Positions 30,615 to 41,210 of a stretch of DNA of 46,275 nucleotides are shown in pieces (positions within the stretch are counted from its first letter, which is position 1; each line of letters begins with the position of its first letter). A program made the position numbers and the translations under genes. The DNA is taken from positions 1 to 46,275 of the forward strand of contig CAZWTX010000020.1 in the NCBI GenBank assembly GCA_964637135.1, in the 5' to 3' direction. The notes under the pieces were generated by a model. That model was given only the letters and a program-made list of their open reading frames with translations, was not told where the DNA came from and ran no database searches. This DNA is from an uncultured Methanospirillum sp. Its GTDB lineage: Archaea; Halobacteriota; Methanomicrobia; Methanomicrobiales; Methanospirillaceae.

Positions 30615-31700
30615 ATGGGCAGCACAGCACTTGCTCAGGTGGCCAGGCGGTGGCAGCAACAGATCACTTCTTCCCCTGAATACGCGGTGGTAGCACATGA
30701 CAACACCTACCGGCTTGGCATGTCTCCCTCATCAATCGGGGAGACAAGGTACCATGCATGCGGGAACCTGCTCACTGAGCTCCTCGGGCAGTATGAAGGG
30801 ATCAGGCTTGAAGATGCCATTCCGGGGAAAGAACAAGAGAACCGGGAAGGAGGATACTACAGGATCACCCATTCCGAGACCTTTCCACAGGGGATGCTCG
30901 CTCCGTTTTCTGCGTCCCATCTCCTCTTCCGACAACTGGATCTCGTAAAAGGGGTCGGGGAGAAACGGATGCACCAGTTCAGGTCACGGGGGATCCGCAC
31001 CCTTCAGGATATGATGTTTCTCCGCCGGTATGCTCCCGATGCCGGCGACCTGACCGTTCTTATCGCTGAAGAGATGGATTCTCTCTACCTGGATCTTAAA
31101 AAACGAAAAGGTCCGTCCCACCCCCTGACCCTCCTCGGTACTGCCCGGATGGAGCGGGAACGATTCCGGTTCATCGACATCGAAACTATGGGCCTTTTTG
31201 GAAGGCCCGTTATCCTCATCGGTGTCGCTGCCTTCACCGGAGATACCCTTCAGTCAACACAACTGCTCCTCCGGGATATCGGAGAGGAATGTGCTGCCCT
31301 CACTGCCCTCCACGACCTGATCCCTCCCGATGCGGTCCTGGTATCATTCAACGGACGCTGCTTTGATATCCCCTACCTGCAGGAACGGATGCATTATTAT
31401 GGGCTCGACCCTCTTCCCGAACACCTGCACGTCGATCTCCTCCACCCATCAAGAAGGGTATGGAGAAGGGAGGGGCATGACTGCCGCCTGTCTACCCTTG
31501 AGCAACGGTACCTTGGCATCTCCCGGCACCAGGATCTTCCGGGAATGCTCGTTCCCGAGTGGTACAATACGTACCTGCACACCCGCAACCCGGGACCACT
31601 CCTCCCCATCGTGACGCATAACCGGCAGGATGTGATCAGTCTTGCCTATCTCTTCGACCTTCTCAGGAGGCGGGCAGGTGAATGGTATACCGGTGCGTGA
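30615..31700 (+). CDS. RNase H-like DEDD exonuclease, YprB/MrfB-like, with HhH motif
   Basis: LVKGVGEK (HhH), FIDIETMG, SFNGRCFDIPYL, HVDLLH, CRLSTLE, HNRQDV. Confidence 0.85.
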   Translation: MGSTALAQVARRWQQQITSSPEYAVVAHDNTYRLGMSPSSIGETRYHACGNLLTELLGQYEGIRLEDAIPGKEQENREGGYYRITHSETFPQGMLAPFSASHLLFRQLDLVKGVGEKRMHQFRSRGIRTLQDMMFLRRYAPDAGDLTVLIAEEMDSLYLDLKKRKGPSHPLTLLGTARMERERFRFIDIETMGLFGRPVILIGVAAFTGDTLQSTQLLLRDIGEECAALTALHDLIPPDAVLVSFNGRCFDIPYLQERMHYYGLDPLPEHLHVDLLHPSRRVWRREGHDCRLSTLEQRYLGISRHQDLPGMLVPEWYNTYLHTRNPGPLLPIVTHNRQDVISLAYLFDLLRRRAGEWYTGA

Positions 31701-33981
31701 TCTTCTTCTTGATAACCCCCGGTTCTCACCGTTTATTTCAGACCTGCGGATTCTCCCCGGCCGGGGGGCTGAGTACGCCGAACCGCCTCATTTTACCGGG
31801 ATAACTGCGTGGTTCCTGGAAAAACAGGGTCTCAAACTCTATACCCACCAGGCAGAGACGGTTGAGGCAGTCTGTTCGGGAGAGGATGTGATCCTGAGCA
31901 CACCGACGGCTTCCGGAAAGACATACGCTTTTTTTCTCCCTTTTGTAGAGATGCGGGCAGAAAATCCCGGGGTAACCGCACTTGCCCTTTACCCGGCAAA
32001 AGCCCTGACCAGGGATCAGATGAAGGCCCTTCTCGATATAGAAAGGGTATCAGGAGTTAATCTGAATCCTGCCATCTATGACGGTGATGTCCCGTCATCA
32101 GTCAGGCCCGGGATCAGGGAGAATGCAGGAATCGTCCTGACCAACCCGTATGAACTCCACCAGATCCTCCCGTGGCACCGCCAGTGGAGCCGGTTTTTCC
32201 GCTCATTGAGGTATGTAATCATCGATGAAGCTCACCAGTTCAGGGGTGTCTTCGGGAGTCATGTCGCGCTCCTGATACGAAGACTCCGGCGGATTGCAGC
32301 ATATTACGGATCTGATCCCATCTTCATCCTCTCTTCAGCCACCCTTGCCAATCCCACCTCCTTTGCTGCGAGTCTTACCGGGAAGAAATGCCGGTTTATC
32401 GGGAAGAGCGGGGCCCCTTCAGGGGACCGGATGATTGTTCTCTATAATCCGTACCAGCTCGGGTTCACGGAGCGGACTCCCTCCTCAGAAGCTGCACTCC
32501 TTCTTGCCTCCCTGGTCGAATCAGGCCATCAGACTCTTTGTTTCACCGGATCGAGAAAAATGACCGAACTGATCGCATCCTGGGCCAGAGGACGCATCAC
32601 CGGGAAAAACCGGAATTACCAGCCGGTTGTGGCATACCGGGCAGGGTACCTCCCGGAGGAACGGAAAGCGATCGAATCCCGGGTAAAATCTGGGGAGATC
32701 AGGGGCATTGTCTCGACCAATGCTCTTGAACTGGGGATTGATATTGGAACCCTTGATGCGGTGGTCATGACCGGGTACCCGGGAACGATAATGTCGGTAT
32801 GGCAGCAGGCCGGTCGGGCAGGCAGGACCGGAAAGGAATCGGTTGCGATACTCATCGGGTTTCACAGCCCGCTTGACCAGTATTTCATGAGAAATCCGTC
32901 GATATTTTTCGAACGCCCGCCTGAACATGCCTTTGTCAATCCGGATAACCCCTACATCCTGTCCGGTCAGATCCTCTGCGCCGGGGCAGAACTGCCTCTT
33001 CAGGCAGGAGATTCCCGGTGGTTTGGAGATACCCTCACGGATCACCTCTCCTCCCTTTCGGGAGAACACCTGCTGACATCAACACCCCGGGGGTTTGTGT
33101 ATTCAGGCCTGAAACGGGCGACCGAACTGATATCTCTCTCAGAAACCGGGGAAAACTGGACACTGGAGACAAAAGGGAAGGTCCTCGAAACGCTTACCCA
33201 AGATCAGGCCTGCAGGGAGGCGCATGAGGGAGCGGTTTTTGTGCACCAGGGGGAGACATATCTCGTCCGGCGATGGGCAGCAGACCAGCAGCGGATATTT
33301 GCAGACCGGGAGGATGTTCCCTACCATACCCGGGCGGATCATTCAGAACAGGTACGGATTATTGAAGCACAGGAGACGAGATCAGTCCCGGGGGGAACCC
33401 TGACCCTTGGATCGGTAGAGGTTACCGGGATATACACCGGATACCGGAAAATCCTTGACGGGGTCACCATCGGGCAGGAACCCCTTGATATTCCCCCGAC
33501 CTCGTATCAGACGATTGCGATCTGGTGGATCCCGGAGTCCGGGGTCTGTGAATCGGTTACCAGGAGTGGAGGGGATCTCGCAGGAAGCCTCCATGGAGCA
33601 GAGCATCTCCTGATCAGCATGATGCCATGGCATCTCCTCTGCGATCGCCGGGATATCGGGGGGCTTTCCACCGTCATGTCAGACCAGACCGGTACCCCGG
33701 TTATATTCATATATGACGGGTACGAGGGGGGAACCGGTCTTTGTGAGGCATCATACCCCCTTTTCGAACGCATCGGAGGATCCGCGTTTGATGCGGTGGA
33801 CCGGTGCCCGTGTAGTGAAGGATGTCCTGCCTGTATTCATTCACCGAAATGCGGAAATGACAACCAGCCGCTTGATAAAAAGGGTACGGCACTACTATTG
33901 TCTCTCTATCAGGATGCAGAAAATCCAGATATTATGCATCCGGGTTCTTCTTTGCGAGCACCTTCTCCTTGTAATGAGTGA
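31678..33981 (+). CDS. DEAH-box helicase with DUF1998 zinc domain (MrfA/Hrq1/SftH-like)
   Basis: LYTHQ, TPTASGKT, YPAKAL, DEAH, SAT, TNALELGIDIG, QQAGRAGR, IYDGYEGGTG, CPCSEGCPAC.....C. GTG start at 31678 inferred. Confidence 0.92.
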   Translation: MNGIPVRDLLLDNPRFSPFISDLRILPGRGAEYAEPPHFTGITAWFLEKQGLKLYTHQAETVEAVCSGEDVILSTPTASGKTYAFFLPFVEMRAENPGVTALALYPAKALTRDQMKALLDIERVSGVNLNPAIYDGDVPSSVRPGIRENAGIVLTNPYELHQILPWHRQWSRFFRSLRYVIIDEAHQFRGVFGSHVALLIRRLRRIAAYYGSDPIFILSSATLANPTSFAASLTGKKCRFIGKSGAPSGDRMIVLYNPYQLGFTERTPSSEAALLLASLVESGHQTLCFTGSRKMTELIASWARGRITGKNRNYQPVVAYRAGYLPEERKAIESRVKSGEIRGIVSTNALELGIDIGTLDAVVMTGYPGTIMSVWQQAGRAGRTGKESVAILIGFHSPLDQYFMRNPSIFFERPPEHAFVNPDNPYILSGQILCAGAELPLQAGDSRWFGDTLTDHLSSLSGEHLLTSTPRGFVYSGLKRATELISLSETGENWTLETKGKVLETLTQDQACREAHEGAVFVHQGETYLVRRWAADQQRIFADREDVPYHTRADHSEQVRIIEAQETRSVPGGTLTLGSVEVTGIYTGYRKILDGVTIGQEPLDIPPTSYQTIAIWWIPESGVCESVTRSGGDLAGSLHGAEHLLISMMPWHLLCDRRDIGGLSTVMSDQTGTPVIFIYDGYEGGTGLCEASYPLFERIGGSAFDAVDRCPCSEGCPACIHSPKCGNDNQPLDKKGTALLLSLYQDAENPDIMHPGSSLRAPSPCNE

Positions 33982-34932: not shown

Positions 34933-35634
34933 ATGGATTCTGAAGCCCTTGAAAACCTCGTCGATATCCCGTTTCCCCAGCATCCCCACTGTGCCATGGT
35001 TCTTGTACTTGACACATCGGCATCCATGGCTGGAACCAAGATCGCAGAACTGAACGAAGGACTCAACATCCTCTCTACAGAACTGCTCGAGGATGACCTT
35101 GCTTCAAAACGGATCGACATCGCCATCGTCACGTTTGGAAAAGGGGTGAATGTTGTCTCTGAATTTGTCGGAATCAGCGAATTCAGTCCTCCTGTTCTTG
35201 AAGCAGGAGGATATACCCCGATGGGAGAAGCGATCCTGAAGGGCATAGATCTGATCGAGGCGAGAAAGGCCGAATACAGGGAAATTGGCATGGATTACTA
35301 CCGTCCGTGGATATTCCTGATCACCGACGGGCAGCCGACCGATATGCGGAGAGGTGATGACATGTGGGAACGTGTTCTCCAGGCAGTCCATTCAGGTGAA
35401 GAAGAAAAAAAATTTCTCTTCTGGGCGTTGGGAGTCGATCAGGCGAACATGGCCCTCCTCAGGGAGATATCAGCTCCGTCCCGGACCCCGCTTCAGCTGA
35501 AAGAAGCACGATGGGGGGAGATGTTCCTCTGGCTCTCCCGAAGTCTTGCGCGAATATCAGACTCGCGGATCGGAGAGCAGATATCCCTGGAGAATCCGAC
35601 GGCACCAGATGGATGGGGAGTGATCCCCTTATAA
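34933..35634 (+). CDS. terY: TerY-type von Willebrand factor A domain protein (YegL-like)
   Basis: MIDAS LVLDTSASM (DxSxS), GGYTPMG, YYRPWIFLITDGQP, F.WLS.S. Confidence 0.9.
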   Translation: MDSEALENLVDIPFPQHPHCAMVLVLDTSASMAGTKIAELNEGLNILSTELLEDDLASKRIDIAIVTFGKGVNVVSEFVGISEFSPPVLEAGGYTPMGEAILKGIDLIEARKAEYREIGMDYYRPWIFLITDGQPTDMRRGDDMWERVLQAVHSGEEEKKFLFWALGVDQANMALLREISAPSRTPLQLKEARWGEMFLWLSRSLARISDSRIGEQISLENPTAPDGWGVIPL

Positions 35635-36407
35635 TGCAGGAGGAGATGAAGGGTCCCTGGCCGTATATTGCCGGTGCGAGTGTCACCGGGCCACGGCATG
35701 AAAAAGAGAGAGTACCCGGCCAGGATGCATGGGGCTGGCACAGGAGTCCGGATGGTATCTCCCTGCTTGCCGTCGCAGATGGTCTCTCATCGGTCAGGAA
35801 CGGCGGAACGGGATCTGCCGTGGCGGTATCTGCCCTGATCAAAGCAGCTGGAAACAACACCTTCCCGGAATTGGATCTGACCACGGAACAGATTCATTCC
35901 TTCTTTGCCCTTGCCAGGAGCGCACTTGAAGAGCAGGCAGCAGCTGATGGCACTGATATCTGCGAGTACGGAACCACGCTCCTGATCCTCATGTACCGGG
36001 AAGGCCGGGTTATCACCGGGCAGGTTGGTGACGGAATGATATTAAGCGGGACACGGGATATTTTCTCTGTCCTCTCGGTTCCTGAATCGACCGGGTATGC
36101 CAATGAGACAGCATCCCTGACTTCTCCTGACTGGGAGCCGGAACTGATCATCCGGACAGGAACACCAGATACCCTGATCATGGCGACCGACGGATGCCAG
36201 GGTGTTCTCGCCAGGAAGGAAAAAACGGGGTACATCCCGTACCTGCCCTTTATCACCCCGTTCACCGGATTTATCAGGGACCAGGCACGGGCCGGAAGGG
36301 ACGGCAACACGGCCATAACCGGACTGTTGCTTTCGCAGAAGATGCAACAGTTCTCATCTGATGACAAAACCATGGTCATCCTTTGCGATGAACCGGAACA
36401 ATCCTGA
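35634..36407 (+). CDS. PP2C-family Ser/Thr phosphatase (YegK-like)
   Basis: GASVTGPRH...GQDA, AVADGLSS, TTL, QVGDG, YANET, ATDG, SDDKT; TAATG overlap with the vWA gene. Confidence 0.9.
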   Translation: MQEEMKGPWPYIAGASVTGPRHEKERVPGQDAWGWHRSPDGISLLAVADGLSSVRNGGTGSAVAVSALIKAAGNNTFPELDLTTEQIHSFFALARSALEEQAAADGTDICEYGTTLLILMYREGRVITGQVGDGMILSGTRDIFSVLSVPESTGYANETASLTSPDWEPELIIRTGTPDTLIMATDGCQGVLARKEKTGYIPYLPFITPFTGFIRDQARAGRDGNTAITGLLLSQKMQQFSSDDKTMVILCDEPEQS

Positions 36408-36410
36408 AGC

Positions 36411-39400
36411 ATGATGAATACCGGTACGATCGGGGTATCCGGGCCACGGATAAGGGTGGACCGAAAATCACTCGTAGTCTCCGCCAGAGCCGGTAAAAAA
36501 AACTGCACCGGGACGATACGGATAGTAAACGACGGGAGGGGAGAGCTCAGCGGAAGGGTGTTTTCCAGTGTTCCATGGATTCATGCCAGGACATCCTCGT
36601 TTCTGACCACATTCATCCATGACATCATCGTTGAGATTGATCCTGCTGCAATCCCTCCCGGTTCATGCGGAGAGGGCATTATCGGGATCATAAGCAACGG
36701 CGGTTCGGTCCAGATACCGGTGAGGTATATCCCTTCACCGCAGGTCACAGCGATGCTTTCGGTCGAATCACAGACGATCCAGATCTGCAACCTTGCGAGG
36801 GGAGAAACCGCCCGGACAACCCTCATCATCAGAAACAAGGGATGTGGATTTCTTTCCGGATCGGTATCCTCATATGACGACTGGATTTGCATCCCGTCAC
36901 GCACGATATGGACAAAGGATATCCAGATAATCCCGGTTGACATCCGAACGGGGCGGGCTCCCGGTGTTCTCCACCCGGTTGGCAGGATCCTCATCAGGAC
37001 AAACGGGGGGGAAGAGACCGTTTCCGTGTCACTTGGATTTGCACAGGGTTCACGACCAGTGATCAGGGTCCGCCCCGAGCGGATACGGGTTTCATGGAAT
37101 GTCCACGGGATCATCGAGGAACGGCTTTTAATCGCCAACGACGGGATGGCCACTCTCAGGGGGACCATCCCGGCCTCATCTTCCGGGCTGACAGCGGTTC
37201 CCGCGATATTCACGGTTGAACCCGGGCAGGTGGCCAGGATTATCATCCGAATCGACACCCGCCGCTGCTGCCAGGGTGATTCCTGCACGTTGACGCTTCC
37301 GGTGATCACCAGTATCGGCCCGGTGAGTATTCCGGTTGAGGTTACCCGGAGTAACCGGCATCCGGTGAAACGTCCCCCCGTTGTACGCCGCCGCCTCAGA
37401 CCGGTCAGACGGGTGAAGCGGATGACCGCCTACGTAAACGGTGAGCCGATATCCCTCGTATCATCGGGTAAAAGCGGAGGGGAAGGGGAGATCTGGTTCT
37501 GTCCGGATGCCGGGAACCTCTGTGTGAAGATCTTTCATCCACATCGGATCACTCCTGATCTCGAGGAGAAGATCCGGGAGATGGCGGAGTTTCCACCCGG
37601 ACCGGAGATCTGTGCACGGACAACCTGGCCGAGAGCCCTCGTTTCCGACAAGCCATCAGGCGGGAGGTTTATCGGGTACCTGATGACAAGGATTCCGGAA
37701 GACCGGTTCAGGCCAGCACATCTCTGGTATGACAACCCGGCCGGTACAGATGACATGGCTGCCAGGATACGGGCAGCGGGTGAACTGGCTAATCTGGTTG
37801 ATCTCATTCACAAAGCCGGGCACGGGATCGGCGATCTCAGGGAGAATAATATCCTCGTGTCCGGCGACGGGCAGGTTCTCATCATTGATACCGATTCTTT
37901 TCAGATCAGGGGCAGATCAAAGCGGCTGTATCCCTGCATGGTTGGCACGGGGGAGTATCTTCCCCCTGAACTCCTCCGTTCCGGAGGAGCAGGCCTGTGC
38001 CGGGACCGGATGAATGCAGACCGGTTTGCCCTCGGTATCCTGATCTTCCGCTTTCTCATGGACGGCGTGCATCCGTTCCAGGCAAAAGGAGAACTGGTTG
38101 CCGGTTCGCCTGCGACGACTGACAAAATTCTCCTCGGGTACTATGCCTACGAGACCAGGACACCAGGGATATCCCCCCCTGAATATGCACCCCCATACAC
38201 AAGAATCCCCCCGCCGGTCAGATCCCTCTTTTATGAAGTATTTGTTTCAGGCCATTCTATTCCTGAAAAACGGCCGGATCCTGCACGGTGGCATACCGTT
38301 CTCTCCCAGGTCCGGGTAACGAAAAAGCCGGAGAAATCCCGTCCGGCCCCCCGGGTAGAAGACCCACAGGTTTCCCGGGAGGTGACAACTCCGCCCCGTC
38401 ATACCGACCAGGAAGGGATTCCGGTCATGATCAGGGACCGGATTGTCCGGATTACCAGTGGAACGGTCTTCCAGACCGACCGGGAAGGATATTATGCGGT
38501 TATATTCCGGCAGAGTCCATCATCCAAAAGCAGGAACCGGCCCGGCCTAGCAGGAACATCCCCTTCCTGGATCATACCGGCATCCTGCCTCTGTAATTCA
38601 CAGGGCCGCCCGTGCGGCTACCTGGTTCCGGCTTTTGATCCGGCCCGGTATCGGCACTGGCACATGATATCTGATCCCGGAACCCGTGTTCCTGCATTCG
38701 GATCCGGGTACTCCTTCCTCCACCGCATCGCTGCCTGTCGCAACCTTGCCATCTCCCTTGCCTCGCTCCAGGCTGCCGGATTATTCCCCCTCTCGTTCAG
38801 TGAACGGAGTGTTTTCACCGGTCCTGACAGTTCGGTCAGGATATTTGTATCCGGCTCCTCCGGTTCGTGCGACGGGTGGGCCGGGATATATGTTACAGCC
38901 ACTGAGCTCATCCACCAGATGCTTACCGGCGGGTACCGGCCAGGCCGTGAAGGAACGGGCATTACTCACATGAGAACACTCCCGGTACCAGTCAGGAGAA
39001 CATTCGAACGATACAATGAAAGCGGGATCCCTCCCCTTCCAAGGGAGTGGTTCTCCCTGCTGGATGCAGTCTTTCATCAGATGATAAGGTGCCCCAACGG
39101 CGCGGATCACTGGTATCTTGGCGCCGAAGGCTGGTGTCCGTTCTGTCATCCGCATGGTCTGTCCGGCAGCTCTCTCCCTCCGGGCAGTGTGCCATTCCTT
39201 CTTCCCGCGGAGTCAGCATCTACGAAAAGGCGGAGGGTTAGACGTCTTCTTCGGCTGTCACGACGTTCACGACCGTCAGTATCACCCGGACCGTTTCTTC
39301 TTGCCGTTCCAGGGAAAGAGAACCTCCTCCCCGGCTGCAGGTACCTGGCATCTCTGACTGGTGATATCCCCGGTGCACAACGCGTTATGCTGTATCTGCC

Positions 39401-39752
39401 AGGGGGAACTGCACTGGTTCCGGCGTTCAGGGTTCCGCTCTCACTCGTCTGTGTCCAGGAATCACCGCCATTCCCAGGTGAGCTATCCCCTTCCATCTTT
39501 CCGGACATCTCGCTAATCGATGAGATGAGGTGGTATTCTGCCATGGACCGGCTCAGGGGTGAAGAGTGGGCCCGGGCAAAACGGAAGAGAATGCCCCGGG
39601 TGCGCCAGGTGAAATGCCCGGTTCAGGTAATGCTCTTCCCGATCGATCTTCCTGCCCCGGTTCCCGGACCCGGGCGGATTCCATCCGGAAGAAGAGAAAA
39701 GAAGGGAATCCGGAAGAAGATACAGAGAATCCTCGATGACTTCATGGGATGA
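36411..39752 (+). CDS. YegI-like Ser/Thr kinase with three N-terminal Ig-like repeats, a second degenerate kinase-like domain and a Zn-ribbon
   Basis: SGGEGEIW, VKIF, IGDLRENNILV, IDTDSFQ, VGTGEYLPPE, DRFALG, GVHPF, KRP; repeats I.N.G.G.L.G...W...NGG; C-terminal CPNGADHWY...CPFC. Confidence 0.88.
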   Translation: MMNTGTIGVSGPRIRVDRKSLVVSARAGKKNCTGTIRIVNDGRGELSGRVFSSVPWIHARTSSFLTTFIHDIIVEIDPAAIPPGSCGEGIIGIISNGGSVQIPVRYIPSPQVTAMLSVESQTIQICNLARGETARTTLIIRNKGCGFLSGSVSSYDDWICIPSRTIWTKDIQIIPVDIRTGRAPGVLHPVGRILIRTNGGEETVSVSLGFAQGSRPVIRVRPERIRVSWNVHGIIEERLLIANDGMATLRGTIPASSSGLTAVPAIFTVEPGQVARIIIRIDTRRCCQGDSCTLTLPVITSIGPVSIPVEVTRSNRHPVKRPPVVRRRLRPVRRVKRMTAYVNGEPISLVSSGKSGGEGEIWFCPDAGNLCVKIFHPHRITPDLEEKIREMAEFPPGPEICARTTWPRALVSDKPSGGRFIGYLMTRIPEDRFRPAHLWYDNPAGTDDMAARIRAAGELANLVDLIHKAGHGIGDLRENNILVSGDGQVLIIDTDSFQIRGRSKRLYPCMVGTGEYLPPELLRSGGAGLCRDRMNADRFALGILIFRFLMDGVHPFQAKGELVAGSPATTDKILLGYYAYETRTPGISPPEYAPPYTRIPPPVRSLFYEVFVSGHSIPEKRPDPARWHTVLSQVRVTKKPEKSRPAPRVEDPQVSREVTTPPRHTDQEGIPVMIRDRIVRITSGTVFQTDREGYYAVIFRQSPSSKSRNRPGLAGTSPSWIIPASCLCNSQGRPCGYLVPAFDPARYRHWHMISDPGTRVPAFGSGYSFLHRIAACRNLAISLASLQAAGLFPLSFSERSVFTGPDSSVRIFVSGSSGSCDGWAGIYVTATELIHQMLTGGYRPGREGTGITHMRTLPVPVRRTFERYNESGIPPLPREWFSLLDAVFHQMIRCPNGADHWYLGAEGWCPFCHPHGLSGSSLPPGSVPFLLPAESASTKRRRVRRLLRLSRRSRPSVSPGPFLLAVPGKENLLPGCRYLASLTGDIPGAQRVMLYLPGGTALVPAFRVPLSLVCVQESPPFPGELSPSIFPDISLIDEMRWYSAMDRLRGEEWARAKRKRMPRVRQVKCPVQVMLFPIDLPAPVPGPGRIPSGRREKKGIRKKIQRILDDFMG

Positions 39753-40637: not shown

Positions 40638-41210
40638 TCAGGTCCGTTTGTACAGGCAATCCTGTTTTCCATCCAGTACCTCACCCATGCAACAGGTCTG
40701 GTTTGCTGGCTGATAACAGGAATCACCACACTTCTTCCATCCGGAACCGGGATACGCCTTACCCTGGCAACAGGACTCTGTTGCGGGATCATAGCAGGTT
40801 TCACCGCACCGGGTATACCCGGGTCTATCATACACCGTGTTGTTACAGCAGGACTGGGAAGTAATGTTGTAACAGGAGTCCCCGCAGGTGCCCCAGAACA
40901 GTCCATCCTTGACCATTCCATTGCAACAGGACTGGGAAGTCGGATTGTACGTATCGTTTCCGCACAACGGCATGCAGGGGCCGGTTGTCACCTTCTCATG
41001 ACAGCAGCTCTCGATTGACATGTTGTAACAGGTATACCCGCAGGCTGCCCACCGGGTTCCTTCATAGACCGTGCCCTGGCAGCAGGACTGGGTACCCGGG
41101 TCATACACCGCATCACCACACGGTACCGCTTTCTCGGCCACAACCAGAGGGACGATGGAAACAAGGAAGGCAACCATAAGGGTGCCTATTATCATACCGG
41201 TACGGATCAT
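40638..41210 (-). CDS. Secreted cysteine-rich tandem-repeat protein (galaxin-like CG...Y.P....CC.G repeats)
   Basis: Signal peptide followed by six 26-aa repeats containing 24 Cys. Confidence 0.85.
   Translation of the reverse strand: MIRTGMIIGTLMVAFLVSIVPLVVAEKAVPCGDAVYDPGTQSCCQGTVYEGTRWAACGYTCYNMSIESCCHEKVTTGPCMPLCGNDTYNPTSQSCCNGMVKDGLFWGTCGDSCYNITSQSCCNNTVYDRPGYTRCGETCYDPATESCCQGKAYPGSGWKKCGDSCYQPANQTCCMGEVLDGKQDCLYKRT

Follow-up and report, generated by a model that had tools for sequence, protein, structure and literature searches.

The triad locus

We analysed a 46,275-nucleotide (nt) stretch of contig CAZWTX010000020.1 from an uncultured Methanospirillum sp., referred to below as the window. 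On one strand, and in this order, it carries terY, which encodes a TerY-like protein with a von Willebrand factor A (vWA) domain, a gene for a PP2C phosphatase and, in third place, a gene for a kinase of unusual architecture (Table 1). A TerY vWA protein, a PP2C phosphatase and a Ser/Thr kinase with a C-terminal Zn ribbon together make up the TerY-P triad (Anantharaman 2012, as cited in PMC11090510 and PMC4978471). The terY and PP2C genes overlap by 1 nt, 3 nt separate the PP2C stop codon from the kinase gene, and each of the three genes is present in one copy in this genome. In the kinase protein, three Ig-like repeats are followed by an active-type kinase domain (K1), a second kinase-like domain (K2) that lacks catalytic residues, a Zn ribbon and a basic, Pro-rich tail. 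An initial annotation of the window had proposed this series of domains, and Pfam, AlphaFold2 (AF2) models, profiles and alignments bear it out.

Among 34 aligned TerY proteins, residues D27, S29, S31 and D132 of the metal ion-dependent adhesion site (MIDAS) are invariant, and T95 is nearly so. Across Methanospirillum, TerY is 73–77 per cent identical, compared to approximately 40 per cent for PP2C and 38–46 per cent for the kinase. A frameshift fusion or other artefact behind the 1,113-amino-acid (aa) kinase frame is excluded, because the gene has the identical open frame in all 12 other genomes of the genus that were first searched and because 37 homologues, mostly full length, were found. 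In RNA libraries that hold an orthologous locus, contigs span the complete triad, and in three of four runs the divergent gap that precedes terY is where they break. Since such contigs give neither strand nor level, and DNA may be present, they are only a weak hint that the triad is expressed.

Table 1. Genes and protein features of the triad locus (positions in the window; aa, amino acids of the kinase protein)
Feature	Positions	Strand	Basis
TerY-like vWA protein with MIDAS motif (D27-x-S29-x-S31, T95, D132)	34933..35634	+	Pfam VWA, E 1e-8; alignment
PP2C phosphatase	35634..36407	+	Pfam PP2C_2, E 8.5e-39; ATG overlaps terY stop
Ig3-kinase-pseudokinase-Zn ribbon-tail protein, 1113 aa	36411..39752	+	Open reading frame
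Ig-like (ASH/BACON-like) repeat 1, aa 12-108	36444..36734	+	Pfam DUF5717_N, AF2, Foldseek
Ig-like repeat 2, aa 114-211	36750..37043	+	Pfam, AF2, Foldseek, repeat alignment
Ig-like repeat 3, aa 216-313	37056..37349	+	AF2, Foldseek
K1, YegI/TerY-P-type Ser/Thr kinase, aa 336-634	37416..38312	+	Motifs, profile, conservation
K2, predicted kinase-fold pseudokinase, aa 663-890	38397..39080	+	Profile, HHalign, model, fold matches
Zn ribbon C894-H900-C909-C912	39081..39152	+	Follows K2, not K1
Basic Pro-rich tail, mostly disordered, aa 915-1113	39153..39749	+	AF2, conservation

An active-type kinase followed by a pseudokinase

K1 has all its catalytic motifs intact: GxxGGEG, GDLRENN (D475 and N480), DTDS (D493–S496) and PPE. 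As the initial annotation had it, this kinase is complete: K373, D475, N480, D493, D495, S496, E520 and the Gly loop GGEG are invariant in 40/40 aligned proteins. The domain also has a short deletion within its alphaD–alphaE insert. The atypical Escherichia coli kinase YegI combines a VGD catalytic loop with a DSD loop; it requires its Lys, its Asp and the DSD loop, has a preference for Mn2+ and shows second-order kinetics of autophosphorylation (bioRxiv 10.1101/819920). PphC, the PP2C phosphatase of the same operon, is reported to dephosphorylate it (10.1101/303594). By analogy with YegI and PphC, we infer that K1 is an active kinase on which the neighbouring PP2C acts.

A direct BLAST comparison of K1 with K2 is uninformative (E = 0.016), and the assignment of K2 was decided by profiles and folds. 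Specifically, a profile built from 15 single-kinase relatives, with no tandem member among them, matches K2 as two colinear pieces (independent E-values of 2e-6 and 1e-7); in 40/40 tandem proteins, it picks out a second kinase-like region. HHalign matches K2 of the genus to K1 at 98.8 per cent (E = 7e-17). A K2 model (aa 663–890) computed from 22 genus-only sequences has a predicted local distance difference test score (pLDDT) of 86 and a predicted template modelling score (pTM) of 0.86; Foldseek lists only protein kinases for it (TM-scores of 0.44–0.59), as does VIA (Z up to 15.2, root-mean-square deviation of 4.5, 225 residues aligned). Judged by profile and model, K2 is a true kinase homologue with a kinase fold.

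The replacements that the initial annotation had noted in the catalytic loop and DxD motif of K2 are confirmed: the catalytic Asp is S795, the Asn is S800 and the DxD Asp is V813. Among the 40 proteins, the catalytic Asp column holds Asp once, and the columns of the Asn and the metal-binding Asp retain the residue in none. K2 also lacks the Gly-rich loop and the beta3 Lys (beta3 reads AVIF here, and ATVY or ATIW in a second genus, g6) and, a point missed earlier, it has neither the activation segment nor the alphaG region. R799 and D806 of K2, in turn, are invariant (40/40). By these residues, K2 is a pseudokinase. Pseudokinases have been reported in only approximately 2 per cent of archaeal proteomes, and some pseudoenzymes stay active through migrated residues (PMC10211241).

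Stepwise erosion of the second kinase domain

The tandem is carried by three lineages. In Methanospirillum, K2 is present in 24/24 genomes, in three of them as pieces divided by contig ends or a gap. In genus g6 (3/3 genomes; proteins of 1,374–1,412 aa), the order is three Ig repeats, K1, K2 and Zn ribbon, and K2 is full length, yet its catalytic residues are already gone. The third lineage comprises three proteins with one Ig domain, K1 and a dead K2 that has the same Arg.

Three grades of erosion can be distinguished among 40 proteins. Three K2 domains are full length (66–67 and 47 residues in the activation-segment and alphaG stretches, respectively, compared to 66 and 48 in K1). Among the 37 genus-type proteins, 19 are without the activation segment (32–38 and 41–48 residues), and the other 18, including the protein described here, are additionally without the alphaG region (33–38 and 16–26 residues). 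What K2 has retained is the alphaD–alphaE–beta7/8 core and the Zn ribbon. The aligned proteins show an order of loss, with the catalytic residues going before the activation segment, and then the alphaG region.

The alphaD–alphaE insert has a history of its own. It spans 57 residues in the single kinases caught by the search pattern and 48–53 residues in 34/39 Methanospirillum K1 domains (four were unmatched and one was mis-anchored), and it is retained in K2. The third lineage keeps the K1 copy and not the K2 copy, and g6 keeps both. Retention of the insert in at least one domain per lineage hints at a divided labour, as seen across three lineages only.

Phylogenetically, K2 forms one clade over all three lineages (Shimodaira–Hasegawa approximate likelihood-ratio support of 99), and K1 forms another (92). 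In a tree in which K2 is represented only by the least-eroded g6 sequences, K2 joins K1 and the Ig-kinase-HEAT single kinases of the family (92/91; 96). The trees support a single ancient event behind K2, which probably arose by duplication, rather than by fusion of a paralogue. The internal duplication postulated by the initial annotation therefore stands as to one ancient event with an origin consistent with duplication; a sister relationship of K1 and K2 is taken up below.

The third-lineage proteins (P0042–P0044; L092:4652-7774 and L093:400-3546) lie on contigs of approximately 40 per cent GC and end in a Zn ribbon. In their K2, the catalytic Asp is replaced by His and the Asn by Thr. The tandem is followed by an isocitrate/isopropylmalate dehydrogenase gene; upstream, L093 has a PP2C fragment and L092 has a type I methylase instead.

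Selection on the kinase protein

We estimated ratios of non-synonymous to synonymous substitution rates (dN/dS) by the Nei–Gojobori method from five disjoint close pairs, which were selected out of 17 pairs, among 23 genes, whose dS is below 1.3. The ratios are 0.10 for the Ig repeats, 0.09 for K1, 0.18 for the Zn ribbon, 0.45 (0.31–0.72) for the linker and 0.40 (0.30–0.54) for the tail. K2 lies at 0.27 (0.21–0.32), with 0.22 (0.17–0.31) in its N-lobe and 0.36 in aa 813–890. In the one g6 pair, the values are 0.30 for Ig, 0.10 for K1 and 0.17 for K2. Column conservation within K2 is uneven: aa 736–812 reach 0.66, compared to 0.68 for K1 overall, and the N-lobe is at 0.39, which is the level of the tail. 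Unconstrained decay of K2 is excluded by its dN/dS range, although K2 is less tightly constrained than K1. These estimates indicate that K2 is maintained under purifying, but relaxed, selection.

Relaxation of this kind could also mark a slowly eroding relic, kept only as a folded C-lobe pedestal for the Zn ribbon and tail of an otherwise ordinary TerY-P kinase. The stepwise deletions, the raised dN/dS of K2 and above all of aa 813–890, the tail-like conservation of the N-lobe and the position of the Zn ribbon after K2 only would all fit. However, a pedestal has no need of an N-lobe, which still folds confidently and has a low dN/dS, nor does a relic account for the invariance of the K2-specific R799 and D806 or for the loss of K2 in 0/24 genomes of the genus. 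We regard this explanation as somewhat doubtful.

Ig-like repeats and their relatives

The full-length AF2 model (40-sequence alignment; mean pLDDT of 75.7, pTM of 0.40) has three consecutive beta-sandwiches at the N-terminus, with pLDDT mostly 80–95 in this block. Its top Foldseek matches are the ciliary central-pair proteins 7sqc, 9ijj and 7som (approximately 320 columns, E = 5e-17), with the SPD-2 domain of CEP192 lower in the list; we take the central-pair proteins to be arrays of ASH domains. In this protein, Pfam finds DUF5717_N twice (E = 4e-12) and a weak HYDIN-like Ig. Across this protein and its orthologues, DUF5717_N scores above the cut-off, and HYDIN, BACON_2 and Cep192_D6 mostly score below it. 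Atlas matches of 0.91–0.92 for the region were taken as a lead. Repeat pairs 1–2 and 1–3 align better than shuffled sequences (0/500 and 1/500 shuffles as good), and pair 2–3 aligns no better than chance (157/500). Each repeat is thus an Ig-like beta-sandwich of approximately 100 aa that resembles HYDIN, Cep192 and BACON_2 domains, in agreement with the ASH/BACON-like repeats initially proposed.

A simple hydropathy scan, run in place of a dedicated signal-peptide or transmembrane predictor, gave a peak of 1.45 and no transmembrane helix in this protein; of the earlier claim that both features are absent, the part on the helix holds to that extent. The peak reaches 1.8–2.1 in the tail of 8/40 orthologues. 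The Ig accessory is apparently cytoplasmic.

The same Ig domain (DUF5717_N/BACON_2/Cep192-like) occurs in single-kinase relatives of the same kinase subfamily, at approximately 37–44 per cent identity. In family f4 (e.g. Methanoplanus limicola), the order is kinase, Zn ribbon and one or two Ig domains. In genera g9 and g15, it is Ig, kinase, Zn ribbon and HEAT, with an only weakly Ig-like N-terminus in g15; the HEAT arrays C-terminal to the Zn ribbon are long (L034 and L071 of g15; L035 of g9). Single kinases of genus g4 have a kinase, a Zn ribbon and a hydrophobic segment. In Candidatus Methanoperedens and other relatives, the kinase and Zn ribbon are followed by a helical domain, a single Ig domain and, directly after it, membrane-like hydrophobic segments. 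Because the same Ig domain sits at other positions in relatives, it is an old accessory of the subfamily that has been moved and triplicated.

Several of the membrane-bound relatives (P0045, P0051–P0054 and P0057–P0061) carry varied C-terminal domains of S-layer, lectin, laminin G or TonB type and look like receptor-type kinases of the TerY-P family. Their helical domain resembles, we presume, TerB, for which Pfam gave no match at E = 0.01. More distant kinases of approximately 800 aa (P0064–P0078) have a precomputed PF03747 domain, which we take to be an ADP-ribosylglycohydrolase. Viral contigs gave a single weak, kinase-only match (26 per cent). A further TerY-P triad, more distant and containing one kinase domain only, is present in M. 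lacunae (L050, genome G257).

Zn ribbon, tail and genomic context

The Zn-ribbon residues C894, H900, C909 and C912 are kept in 40, 40, 39 and 40 of 40 proteins, respectively. The tail has 34 Lys/Arg and 15 Asp/Glu residues and 26 Pro, which agrees with its initial description as basic and Pro-rich; its pLDDT is mostly below 50, and AF2 predicts disorder with three helices, one of them conserved near aa 1035–1055, and zero strands. Neither Pfam nor the strandless AF2 tail gives any sign of an OB fold C-terminal to K2. Pfam finds no helix-hairpin-helix in the protein, and neither Pfam nor Atlas, which returned no usable match, recognises a nucleic-acid domain in the tail.

Upstream of the triad, nine loci of the genus share the same small gene (9/9), a hydrogenase maturation protease gene (6/9), which is also upstream in 3/3 g6 loci, and a MrfA/B-like pair (8/9). 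In the window, this pair, syntenic upstream of the triad, comprises an RNase_H_2 exonuclease and a DEAD/MZB helicase (MrfB/MrfA-like repair pair; 30615-33981, + strand). The genes downstream vary and include haem biosynthesis, PAS protein and 5'-nucleotidase genes. Also in the window, 40638-41210 on the – strand encodes a protein of 190 aa whose N-terminus is hydrophobic and which has galaxin-like repeats rich in Cys (Pfam E = 2e-18). The triad locus is fixed and core-like in Methanospirillum.

The repair-type neighbours raise the question of a DNA-damage or nucleic-acid switch, in which the Zn ribbon and basic tail would take over from a YegI-like helix-hairpin-helix in binding DNA or RNA and would gate K1 via K2. 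The basic linker and tail would suit such binding, and nucleic acid has been proposed as the ligand of the TerY-P kinase Zn ribbon (PMC11090510). Against this, two opposite-strand genes lie between the Mrf-like pair and the triad, no such pair was found at the three g6 loci, and no nucleic-acid domain is recognised in the tail. We consider this explanation quite improbable.

An antiviral role was the function that the initial annotation had suggested, with the Ig repeats sensing a viral protein and K2 acting as an autoinhibitor or decoy. Here, the Ig domains would bind a viral protein and release K2 inhibition, or K2 would serve as the decoy, and K1 would then trigger defence. TerY-P-like triads are indeed reported to work on their own as anti-phage systems (Gao 2020, cited in PMC11090510), the defence proteins PglW and DndF pair a pseudokinase with a kinase (PMC12839542), orthologous Ig domains match the Pfam family 'Viral BACON', and one third-lineage contig adjoins a type I methylase. 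The locus itself argues otherwise. We found no defence-island setting: the upstream genes are fixed, and PADLOC matched, weakly, 1/58 downstream open reading frames at 14 loci, a response regulator. The vWA and PP2C proteins have no PADLOC match at E = 0.01, and the kinase has only generic kinase-region matches. The Ig dN/dS in the genus, next to that of K1, shows no sign of an arms race, the higher value of the one g6 pair aside, and the same Ig domain is single and just ahead of the membrane helices in membrane-bound relatives. The decoy version is unsupported because a decoy would need the substrate-docking face, which K2 has deleted. An antiviral sensor is therefore improbable.

A proposed role for the eroded pseudokinase

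The reading that we favour, and to which we give about an even chance of being right, is that the triad is a genus-wide TerY-P phosphorylation switch, in which the stripped K2, kept by selection, is a scaffold without catalytic function that also regulates K1 in cis. Because K2 is dead and has shrunk stepwise yet is still conserved, it is likely to be a built-in regulator or scaffold, and not a virus sensor. In such a switch, K1 would autophosphorylate its DTDS loop (T494/S496, matching S160/S162 of E. coli YegI) with Mn2+ or Mg2+, PP2C would reset K1, and the TerY MIDAS would supply a metal or ligand input. The tethered K2 would replace a partner protomer, hold K1 in the set state and carry the Zn ribbon; we infer the first of these roles because YegI activation depends on oligomerisation. 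The three cytoplasmic Ig domains would bind a constant host partner and so locate the kinase, a task that falls to the membrane anchor in YegI-type kinases. Most likely, the switch feeds a response to stress or a housekeeping one.

Several observations weigh against this proposal. All the activity that it assumes is carried over from E. coli YegI by analogy. The full-length model, given its pTM, neither shows nor excludes packing of K1 against K2. Constraint on K2 is threefold weaker than on K1 and segments are still being lost, as in a relic; moreover, the dN/dS interval of K2 meets those of the linker and tail. The K2 insert is not required for a Zn-ribbon pedestal, because the third lineage has lost the insert and kept the Zn ribbon. 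Finally, in a tree with all eroded K2 sequences, K2 falls outside and does not group with K1; a sister relationship of the two, although not rejected (approximately unbiased test; P-value = 0.30), goes no further than that, so that K2 may instead stem from the fusion of a related paralogue.

A further proposal, which we hold to be unlikely, is that of an archaeal JAK-like kinase, in which K2 gates K1 in cis and a centrosome/cilium-type ASH-like array docks on a conserved Methanospirillum structure. JAK pseudokinases are described as having arisen by duplication and as regulating in cis (PMC10211241). If the likeness were true, the natural deletion series would show how small a pseudokinase core can become and still regulate a kinase.

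The deletion series, together with a soluble TerY-P kinase in species that can be cultured (M. lacunae, M. stamsii and M. purgamenti), makes it testable what selection preserves in a dead kinase and whether TerY-P triads of the core genome are housekeeping switches. The family offers a way into the role of TerY-P switches outside defence islands.

Comparison with known systems

The architecture was not found among described TerY-P kinases in the literature searched, which fell short of supplements, Anantharaman 2012 and Gao 2020, so that a prior mention is possible; the initial annotation had likewise not recognised it. Compared to the TerY-P triad, the locus has the same three genes in the same order, with an intact MIDAS, PP2C, kinase and terminal Zn ribbon, but it also has an Ig triplet at the N-terminus and, between K1 and the Zn ribbon, a second kinase that is dead, and it is a fixed core locus rather than part of a DNA-processing or restriction island. 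Unlike the stand-alone anti-phage TerY-P systems, where an OB fold is fused to the kinase, it has neither an OB fold nor a defence island.

The YegL–YegK(PphC)–YegI operon of E. coli is likewise a vWA–PP2C–kinase operon, whose kinase shares the GD..E.N loop and a DxD(S) motif in place of HRD and DFG. YegI has 648 aa, whereas the protein described here has two kinase folds, Ig repeats and no transmembrane peak (the two were compared by motifs, not aligned). We take YegI to have a membrane anchor and a helix-hairpin-helix, a label also found on some homologues.

An active Ser/Thr kinase domain also shares a prokaryotic polypeptide with an inactive one in the type 2 BREX protein PglW and in DndF (PMC12839542). 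In those proteins, however, the pseudokinase comes first, after a NERD nuclease, and within a defence system, and the available part of that source describes no TerY or PP2C partner. JAK and plant tandem kinase-pseudokinases also join a kinase and a pseudokinase in one chain after duplication, but the likeness is by analogy only: they belong to a different kinase family, and K2 is without the activation segment and alphaG region. The single-kinase Ig relatives, known as annotated sequences only, differ in having one kinase, with Ig domains at the C-terminus or a single one at the N-terminus. Each element has precedents elsewhere, namely the TerY-P triad, the Ig accessory and the pairing of kinase and pseudokinase in prokaryotes, and the system is not new in kind; it is a TerY-P kinase variant in which the erosion of a pseudokinase can be followed with unusual clarity.

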